Below are positions 14,273 to 15,486 of a stretch of 64,000 nt of DNA, piece after piece (position 1 is the stretch's first letter; each line of letters starts with the position of its first letter). The DNA is taken from NCBI RefSeq assembly GCF_056746865.1, contig NZ_CM163382.1; one strand, written 5' to 3'. The position numbers and the translations under genes are program-made. Under the pieces are notes generated by a model. That model made no database searches and was not told the origin of the DNA. It saw only the letters and a program-made list of their open reading frames with translations.

Positions 14273-14566
14273 TTATTGATTATCAACAGGAAGAAAAGAA
14301 ACCAAACGCACCCCATCCAAATCCACCGGAATACGTCTATTTTCACCCCAGGTCTGAAATTCAAAACCCGACTCGGTATTGGTCGCCCAGGCCATTACCA
14401 CATTTCCGCAACCTGCCAGTTGAGAGATTTGCTGCCAGATCATCTCCCGAATACGTTTGGACGTATCTCCGACATAAACACCGGCACGCACTTCCAGGAG
14501 CCAGATCGCGAGCCGTCCACGTAAGCGCGGAGGGACATTTTCTGTAACAACGACGACCATACTCAT
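14273..14566 (-). CDS. cas2: CRISPR-associated endoribonuclease Cas2 (type I-E)
   Basis: 97 aa starting [34 protein letters not shown], close to K-12 YgbF as I remember it. ATGA-type overlap with the cas1 end. Confidence 0.9.
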
Positions 14567-15486
14567 CCGCCGCGTCCCCGGTGACCGCTATCGCCCAGCG
14601 TTTCAGGTTCAGGGATGGCAGGCGGTAACATATCCGGCGCGGGTTGTGGTGGTTCAATTTCACCTGCGGCAAGCACTTCCTCGATTAACGGAATTAATTT
14701 GCCCGTTAACTTACTGCTACGGAAAATATCACGACAGGCCAACCTGACTTCTTTATCTGGTTCTGCGGGTTGCCTCGCTGCTATTTCAAATGCCTTTGGC
14801 ACAACCGAATCAAATTTAATGATATCGGCTATGTCATAAACAAATGAAAGCGGTTTGCCACTATGGATAAATCCAATAGCGGGCGCTTATCCCGCGGCTA
14901 ATACTGCCGCTTCAGAAATACCGTACAGACATGATGTGGCAGCACTGATGCAGCGATTCACAACATCGCCTTTTTCCCAGTCTTTAGGATCGTATTTGCG
15001 ACCATTCCATTTCACACCATATTGTTTCGCCAGTAATGCATACGTCTGGCGAACGCGGGATCCCTCAATTCCACGTAGCTGCTCCACTGAACGGCGAGCT
15101 GGCGGTGGCTCACGAAAACGTAATTCATACATTTTGCGCACCACCTTCAGACGTAGATCTTCCGTTAAAGCCAGCTTTGCCTGGTAGAGTAACTTATCAG
15201 CACGCGCCCCACCGGGTTGTCCGGAAGAGTAGACGCGAACACCCGCTTCACCGACCCAGACCAGTAGCGTCCCCACCGTGGCGGCCAGATGCACCGCCGC
15301 GTGGGAAACTCTCGTTCCCGGTTCGAGCATAATGCAGGCGACCGATCCCACCGGAATGTGCGTGCGGATCCCGGTTTTGTCGATCAGCACGAAAGCGCCG
15401 TCCAGTACGTCGATTTGACCGTACTGGAGGAAGATCATAGAGGTGCGATCTTTTAACGGGATCGGACTCAGTGGTACAAACGTCAC
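14563..15486 (-). pseudogene. cas1: cas1 (type I-E integrase) interrupted by a single in-frame TAA at codon 200
   Basis: The track ORFs 14887-15486 (199 aa, ends ...AAVLAAG) and 14563-14802 share one frame (their starts are 684 nt apart). The stop at 14887-14889 sits where K-12 Cas1 has Tyr (AAGYAPAIGF). Sequence after the stop still reads APAIGFIHSGKPLSFVYDIADIIKFDSVVPKAFEIA. Confidence 0.85.

Follow-up and report, generated by a model that had tools for sequence, protein, structure and literature searches.

Type I-E CRISPR-Cas loci of Escherichia, Shigella, and Salmonella decay piecemeal, with 17 partial systems recorded against 23 that are seemingly complete (Touchon and Rocha, 2010; PMC2886076). 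That work credited the phylogroup D strain UMN026 with all eight cas genes, and the I-E systems of sequence type (ST) 69 have been treated as complete eight-gene sets in two recent surveys (PMC11597047, PMC12736100). The locus described here resembles those compiled by Touchon and Rocha (2010) in that its cas genes have been inactivated stepwise, by point mutations and rearrangements, beside a retained array. It differs from them in both of its lesions: the earlier one is a lone nonsense codon in the gene for adaptation that has become fixed in a successful clone, and the later one is most likely an integrase-type inversion rather than an insertion sequence (IS) insertion or a deletion. No paper mentioning such a stop in cas1, whether in ST69, in UMN026, or in E. 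coli generally, was found in the open-access literature; the lesion is already known as a RefSeq annotation.

The DNA analyzed is a 64,000-nt stretch of E. coli sequence (hereafter, the window) that encodes a non-K-12 variant of the E. coli I-E cas cluster. The minus-strand frame from 15486 to 14563 specifies a type I-E Cas1 of 307 codons followed by a terminal TGA (924 nt, versus 918 nt in K-12), and its sole internal stop is an ochre codon, TAA, at 14889-14887 (codon 200). The list of open reading frames accordingly divides cas1e into two same-frame pieces, at 14887..15486 (199 aa, GTG start) and 14563..14802 (79 aa). The conceptual protein matched K-12 Cas1 (YgbT; 3NKD, 5DS4, and other structures, also represented by 4P6I) with an E-value of 1.8e-174 in a phmmer search of PDB chains. 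Residues 2-304 align position for position with residues 2-304 of K-12 Cas1, such that numbering is identical and homology to a characterized I-E Cas1 is full length. The stop falls at Tyr200 of the K-12 motif AAGYAPAIGF; identity to K-12 is 88.9% before it, 77.9% after it, and 84.8% over residues 201-279. An earlier interpretation made from the letters alone (the sequence-only reading) had described two cas1 frames in register, a single TAA where K-12 has Tyr, and downstream sequence that still reads as Cas1, and the translation and the alignment to K-12 structures agree with it on all three points. The gene also occupies the same operon place as in K-12 (cas6e-cas1-cas2-leader-array), with cas6e upstream, cas2e overlapping its 3' end, and then the leader and an array of 29-nt I-E repeats, as indicated by the annotation of strain 118UI and by parsing of the array.

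In E. coli Cas1, catalysis depends on the metal-binding residues E141, H208, D218, and D221, all four of which are encoded in the window DNA. The N-terminal frame (14890..15486, minus strand; 199 aa) holds E141 (15066-15064) and no further catalytic residue, whereas the codons for H208 (14865-14863), D218 (14835-14833), and D221 (14826-14824) lie in an untranslated C-terminal remnant (14563..14886, minus strand). The only internal start, a GTG at 14802 (codon 229), lies past these three codons. The window consequently encodes no single polypeptide of ~305 aa with all four residues; translation would end at Tyr200* after 199 residues, with the N-terminal domain and E141 kept. Because H208, D218, and D221 are not made, the Cas1 product would be unable to catalyze spacer integration. 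The proposal that the TAA abolishes the integrase thus stands in that truncation removes three of the four catalytic residues, and loss of the activity itself can safely be inferred from known Cas1 biochemistry. Judged by what it encodes, the locus is a cas1e pseudogene by descent and not a functional member of the family.

The lesion may also extend to the neighboring gene. The intact cas2e (14273..14566, minus strand) begins with an ATG that overlaps the TGA of cas1 by 4 nt (ATGA), and translation of cas2e is probably coupled to that of cas1. Since the cas2 start overlaps the normal cas1 stop, termination 108 codons upstream of that stop would, given this operon layout, probably reduce Cas2 as well. 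Both naive and primed adaptation would be expected to be lost throughout the lineage that carries the allele.

To identify the ancestral state of codon 200, close relatives were compared. An exact 61-mer centered on the cas1e TAA was present in 141 of 5,426 complete E. coli genomes, and versions with one to three base differences were present in a further 2,074. Four genomes that are one base off in the 61-mer were examined, and all have TAT (Tyr) at codon 200; the corresponding alignment column (600) is A in eight carriers of the stop and T in these four intact relatives. Strain 28Eco12, which belongs to ST38 (PMC6963479), differs from the window allele at one base in the 1,310 nt that comprise cas1, cas2, and the leader, and that base is in codon 200. 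Strain 675SK2 likewise has TAT at codon 200 and a single further change, in cas2, with no other difference across the 924-nt cas1e. The intact allele (WP_000144858.1) is distributed among phylogroup D and other E. coli, including 28Eco12, 675SK2, strain 746, CFSAN061763, and APEC E12049. Intact alleles read through codon 200 to yield 307 aa, and no intact orthologue ending at this codon was found among the four near relatives. These comparisons bear out the suggestion of a one-base change in an otherwise intact cas1e and identify it as a T-to-A substitution in the third position of a Tyr codon (TAT to TAA).

Two further features of these loci were observed. In APEC E12049 (O78:H4; L006 1084-3784), an intact cas1 is accompanied by a frameshifted cas3 pseudogene, which represents an independent and different hit in another lineage. 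An IS421 transposase is located directly upstream of cas3, where it replaces cysH-hok, both in the TAA carrier WP8-S18-ESBL-07 and in the intact-cas1 strain 675SK2 (L004 1-730, L009 1-898).

In the window, the cas operon is also split. The intact cas6e coding sequence spans 15483..16133 on the minus strand according to the 118UI annotation, and the 262-aa mechanical frame at 15483-16271 overstates it by an upstream extension. A remnant of cas5e that lacks the first 63 nt of the gene follows at 16115..16798 (minus strand), and the 100% identity to 118UI extends no further than 16798. The final 14 nt of a tRNA-Gly gene occupy 16792..16805 (plus strand), such that 16792-16798 (CTTCGCC) is common to cas5e and the tRNA and marks the crossover; a 231-aa frame with a TTG start (16115-16810) is tRNA and island sequence read across the junction into the cas5e remnant. 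The tyrosine integrase of the tRNA-Gly island is encoded at 16931..18184 (plus strand), with Pfam domains Arm-DNA-bind_3, Phage_int_M, and Phage_integrase and an annotation as integrase in strain SCU-105. No match to cas3 through cas7 was detected anywhere in the 64-kb window, which thus encodes only the truncated cas5e, cas6e, the cas1 pseudogene, cas2, and the array, whereas the full cas set is contiguous in the other TAA carriers examined.

Comparison with SCU-105, itself a TAA carrier, points to the nature of this split. Window positions 16792-64000 are collinear with that genome at 99-99.8% identity, from tRNA-Gly through the island and the ETT2 cluster and from ygeH through yqeH. In SCU-105, tRNA-Gly lies ~156 kb from cas5e, and the two blocks are oriented oppositely to each other compared with the window. 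We considered whether the island had inserted into cas5e and rejected this, because the window runs past the island into chromosomal ETT2 and yqeH, collinear with SCU-105. The opposite orientation together with this collinearity suggests instead that the window contains one junction of a ~156 kb inversion, which is thus deduced from the single junction that falls within the window. The two recombining sites share the 7-nt core CTTCGCC and match at 16 of 25 nt, and the break in tRNA-Gly lies 125 nt upstream of the integrase frame, as is characteristic of a secondary (pseudo-att) site. The inversion was most likely made by the island integrase acting on a look-alike site in cas5e.

None of the 5,426 complete E. 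coli genomes has the junction (16798/16799), and this, along with the presence of only one junction in the window, would also be compatible with an assembly chimera rather than a real inversion. We consider a chimera unlikely. The break is located exactly at the 3' end of tRNA-Gly beside an integrase and coincides with the 7-nt core and the more extended similarity, and a tRNA-Gly break with a shared core is the expected product of site-specific recombination at a secondary site; moreover, the overlap is far too short to mislead an assembler. The inversion leaves cas6e-cas1-cas2 and the array apart from cas3-casA-casB-cas7 and the 63 nt that begin cas5e, and it takes cas6e-cas1-cas2 away from the operon promoter. 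Given the truncated cas5e and the separated operon, interference and crRNA processing should be lost in this genome too. The split arose after the TAA, as a separate event. The sequence-only reading had counted the split operon as a second, independent hit on the system, and it is indeed a separate and independent lesion, although its nature is that of an inversion junction and not of an insertion. The reciprocal junction, predicted to join the 5' part of tRNA-Gly to the first 63 nt of cas5e and then cas7, would replace the 3' acceptor strand of tRNA-Gly.

Several features of the island and of the adjoining chromosome were noted in the course of this comparison. Three large co-oriented frames (843, 686, and 925 aa) lie within the integrase island at window positions 27693-35040; neither Pfam nor PADLOC gave a match for them, the SCU-105 annotation lists them as hypothetical, and they represent uncharacterized island cargo that is possibly a candidate defense system. 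A segment at 25354-27103 is missing from the otherwise collinear SCU-105 island, and it includes an IS605-family TnpB/OrfB gene at 25851-27059 (Pfam OrfB_IS605 and a Cas12f1-like TNB domain). Beyond the island, at 39150-57455, lies the ETT2 type III secretion cluster. In SCU-105, this cluster contains pseudogenes of the YscQ and SpaN families and an IS3 insertion (L003 29089-30911, 40248-41476); the IS3 insertion is missing from the window, with the join near 57694-57698.

Carriers of the TAA allele are widely distributed. They derive from humans, chickens, cattle, a blackbird, and water in the USA, Mexico, Japan, Pakistan, China, and New Zealand. The whole 924-nt allele was recovered at 100% identity in at least 40 genomes, every one among the matches listed. 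In the eight carriers that were inspected, RefSeq (PGAP) labels cas1e as a pseudogene with an internal stop, and the remaining seven cas genes form an intact, uninterrupted set. Window positions 1-16798 are 100.000% identical to strain 118UI, which belongs to ST69 within phylogroup D (PMC8900328), and a second typed carrier, RM14516, is ST6507, O17:H18, and also of phylogroup D (PMC10562709). On the basis of these two typed strains, we take the TAA allele to mark ST69 together with strains closely related to it. Collectively, it is highly likely that an inherited Tyr200* became fixed in this phylogroup D lineage with the loss of adaptation, and that the ~156 kb inversion arose later in the genome studied here; in other carriers, the remainder of the system stayed intact.

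The sequence-only reading had taken good conservation around the stop to indicate a recent event, and for this genome that interpretation is wrong. The carriers have two haplotypes downstream of the array, which differ in the proteins encoded by iap, cysN, ygbE, ispD, ispF, and truD and, at the iap end (the iap side of the array corresponds to window positions of about 12000-13110), at 4 of 531 nt, whereas their cas genes are identical. The presence of two flanking haplotypes beside identical cas genes means that at least one recombination event or sublineage split came after the TAA allele arose, and, together with the wide spread across hosts and countries, that the allele predates both the diversification of the lineage and the split of the operon. 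The lack of further decay in cas1e says little about age, since 924 nt is a very small mutational target. The two iap-to-truD haplotypes also imply that a recombination breakpoint lies at the array or close to it.

None of the sampled carriers shows a change in the 199-aa N-terminal fragment, and a link between Cas1 and DNA repair has been described in E. coli. It could therefore be argued that the fragment has been kept for a function of its own, such as DNA or Cas2 binding or a dominant-negative effect. The absence of any variation within the clade, however, means that selection cannot be judged from this constancy, and most of the catalytic domain is missing from the fragment. A young pseudogene is the simpler reading, and retention of the fragment for such a role appears very unlikely.

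If Cas1 is inactive in this lineage, its arrays would be expected to gain no new spacers at the leader end. The array beside cas2 in the window (13111..14176, minus strand) comprises 18 repeats with 17 spacers between them and is separated from cas2e by the leader (about 14177-14272, minus strand). Arrays of the eight TAA carriers have leader-proximal spacers 1 and 2 in common and differ only by internal deletions or a duplication, and all eight can be derived from one ancestral array without a gain at the leader end. Spacer 1 flanked by repeats was detected in 136 genomes, and the contiguous leader, first repeat, and spacer 1 were also detected in 136, such that no newer spacer precedes spacer 1 in any of them. 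Contiguity with the leader, here and in the control below, was scored at an E-value cut-off of 1e-30, a threshold that no interrupted match reaches; a longer query of 162 nt, made up of the leader and two repeat-spacer units, was confounded by alignments through repeats, and an 86-nt query at the default E-value joins separate pieces. The sets of 141 genomes with the TAA and 136 with spacer 1 were verified to overlap in all eight sampled carriers, and roughly five TAA genomes lack spacer 1.

As a control, we considered the ST38-type lineage, in which cas1 is intact. Its spacer 22 (S22) was detected in 106 genomes, in only 13 of which it is contiguous with the leader. Arrays beside the intact allele vary at the leader end between related genomes, unlike those beside the TAA allele, and three of them are nested, with S22... 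in 28Eco12, Sa-S22... in strain 746, and Sd-Se-Sa-S22... in CFSAN061763 (L005 9743-10259, L014 1326-1964, L015 1109-1869). Nesting at the leader end is the usual signature of successive acquisitions, and these arrays suggest natural spacer acquisition in wild phylogroup D E. coli. The contrast between the TAA and ST38-type arrays is consistent with a dead Cas1, with the caveats that leader-proximal deletions can mimic nesting, that the I-E arrays of E. coli generally change slowly, and that one of the two lineages may be older than the other.

The arrays also bear on whether the stop might be read through or suppressed, by recoding or by an ochre suppressor tRNA, such that full-length functional Cas1 is made. 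The frame downstream of the stop is unchanged in the eight carriers examined and in the at least 40 genomes listed, as it would be under selection. In a young clonal lineage, chance alone would nevertheless be expected to leave 324 nt free of further decay, and a programmed recoding site would be conserved across diverged orthologues, whereas the TAA is confined to one clade of identical sequences (the 141 genomes) and all four outside relatives examined have TAT. TAA is an efficient terminator in E. coli, and the lack of leader-end gain in 136 genomes, when set against the variation in the intact sister lineage, further argues against a functional product; we regard readthrough as highly improbable. 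Finally, the possibility that the TAA is a sequencing or consensus error for TAT or TAC, which has in its favor only the generic prior for a one-base lesion in a single assembly, is excluded in practice by the identity of the 61-mer in 141 complete genomes that were produced independently, in many laboratories and on many platforms, by the exact 199-aa product, which has been deposited as "CRISPR-associated protein Cas1 [Escherichia coli]" from at least 1,000 contigs, and by the complete identity of window positions 1-16798 to 118UI. The internal stop in cas1e is a genuine, inherited, and ordinary pseudogene lesion that is lineage-wide and already annotated in RefSeq.

The I-E system is largely silent in E. 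coli, and, as one more decaying cas gene, the stop in cas1e matters little in itself. It does bear on how cas inventories are read, since homology-based counts score the ST69 I-E system as complete and apparently functional (PMC11597047), when the adaptation gene is a pseudogene across the lineage. The TAA and the fixed first spacer also provide a clean lineage marker, and the ST38-type allele, one base apart, provides an inexpensive natural control for studies of whether I-E adaptation is active in wild E. coli. It is conceivable, but in our view doubtful, that loss of Cas1 was selected early in the ST69 lineage rather than having arisen by neutral decay, for example by removing a barrier or an autoimmunity cost during the gain of plasmids and prophages. 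If this were so, the contrast between the TAA and ST38-type lineages would constitute a natural knock-out, and would show that native I-E adaptation operates in wild E. coli.
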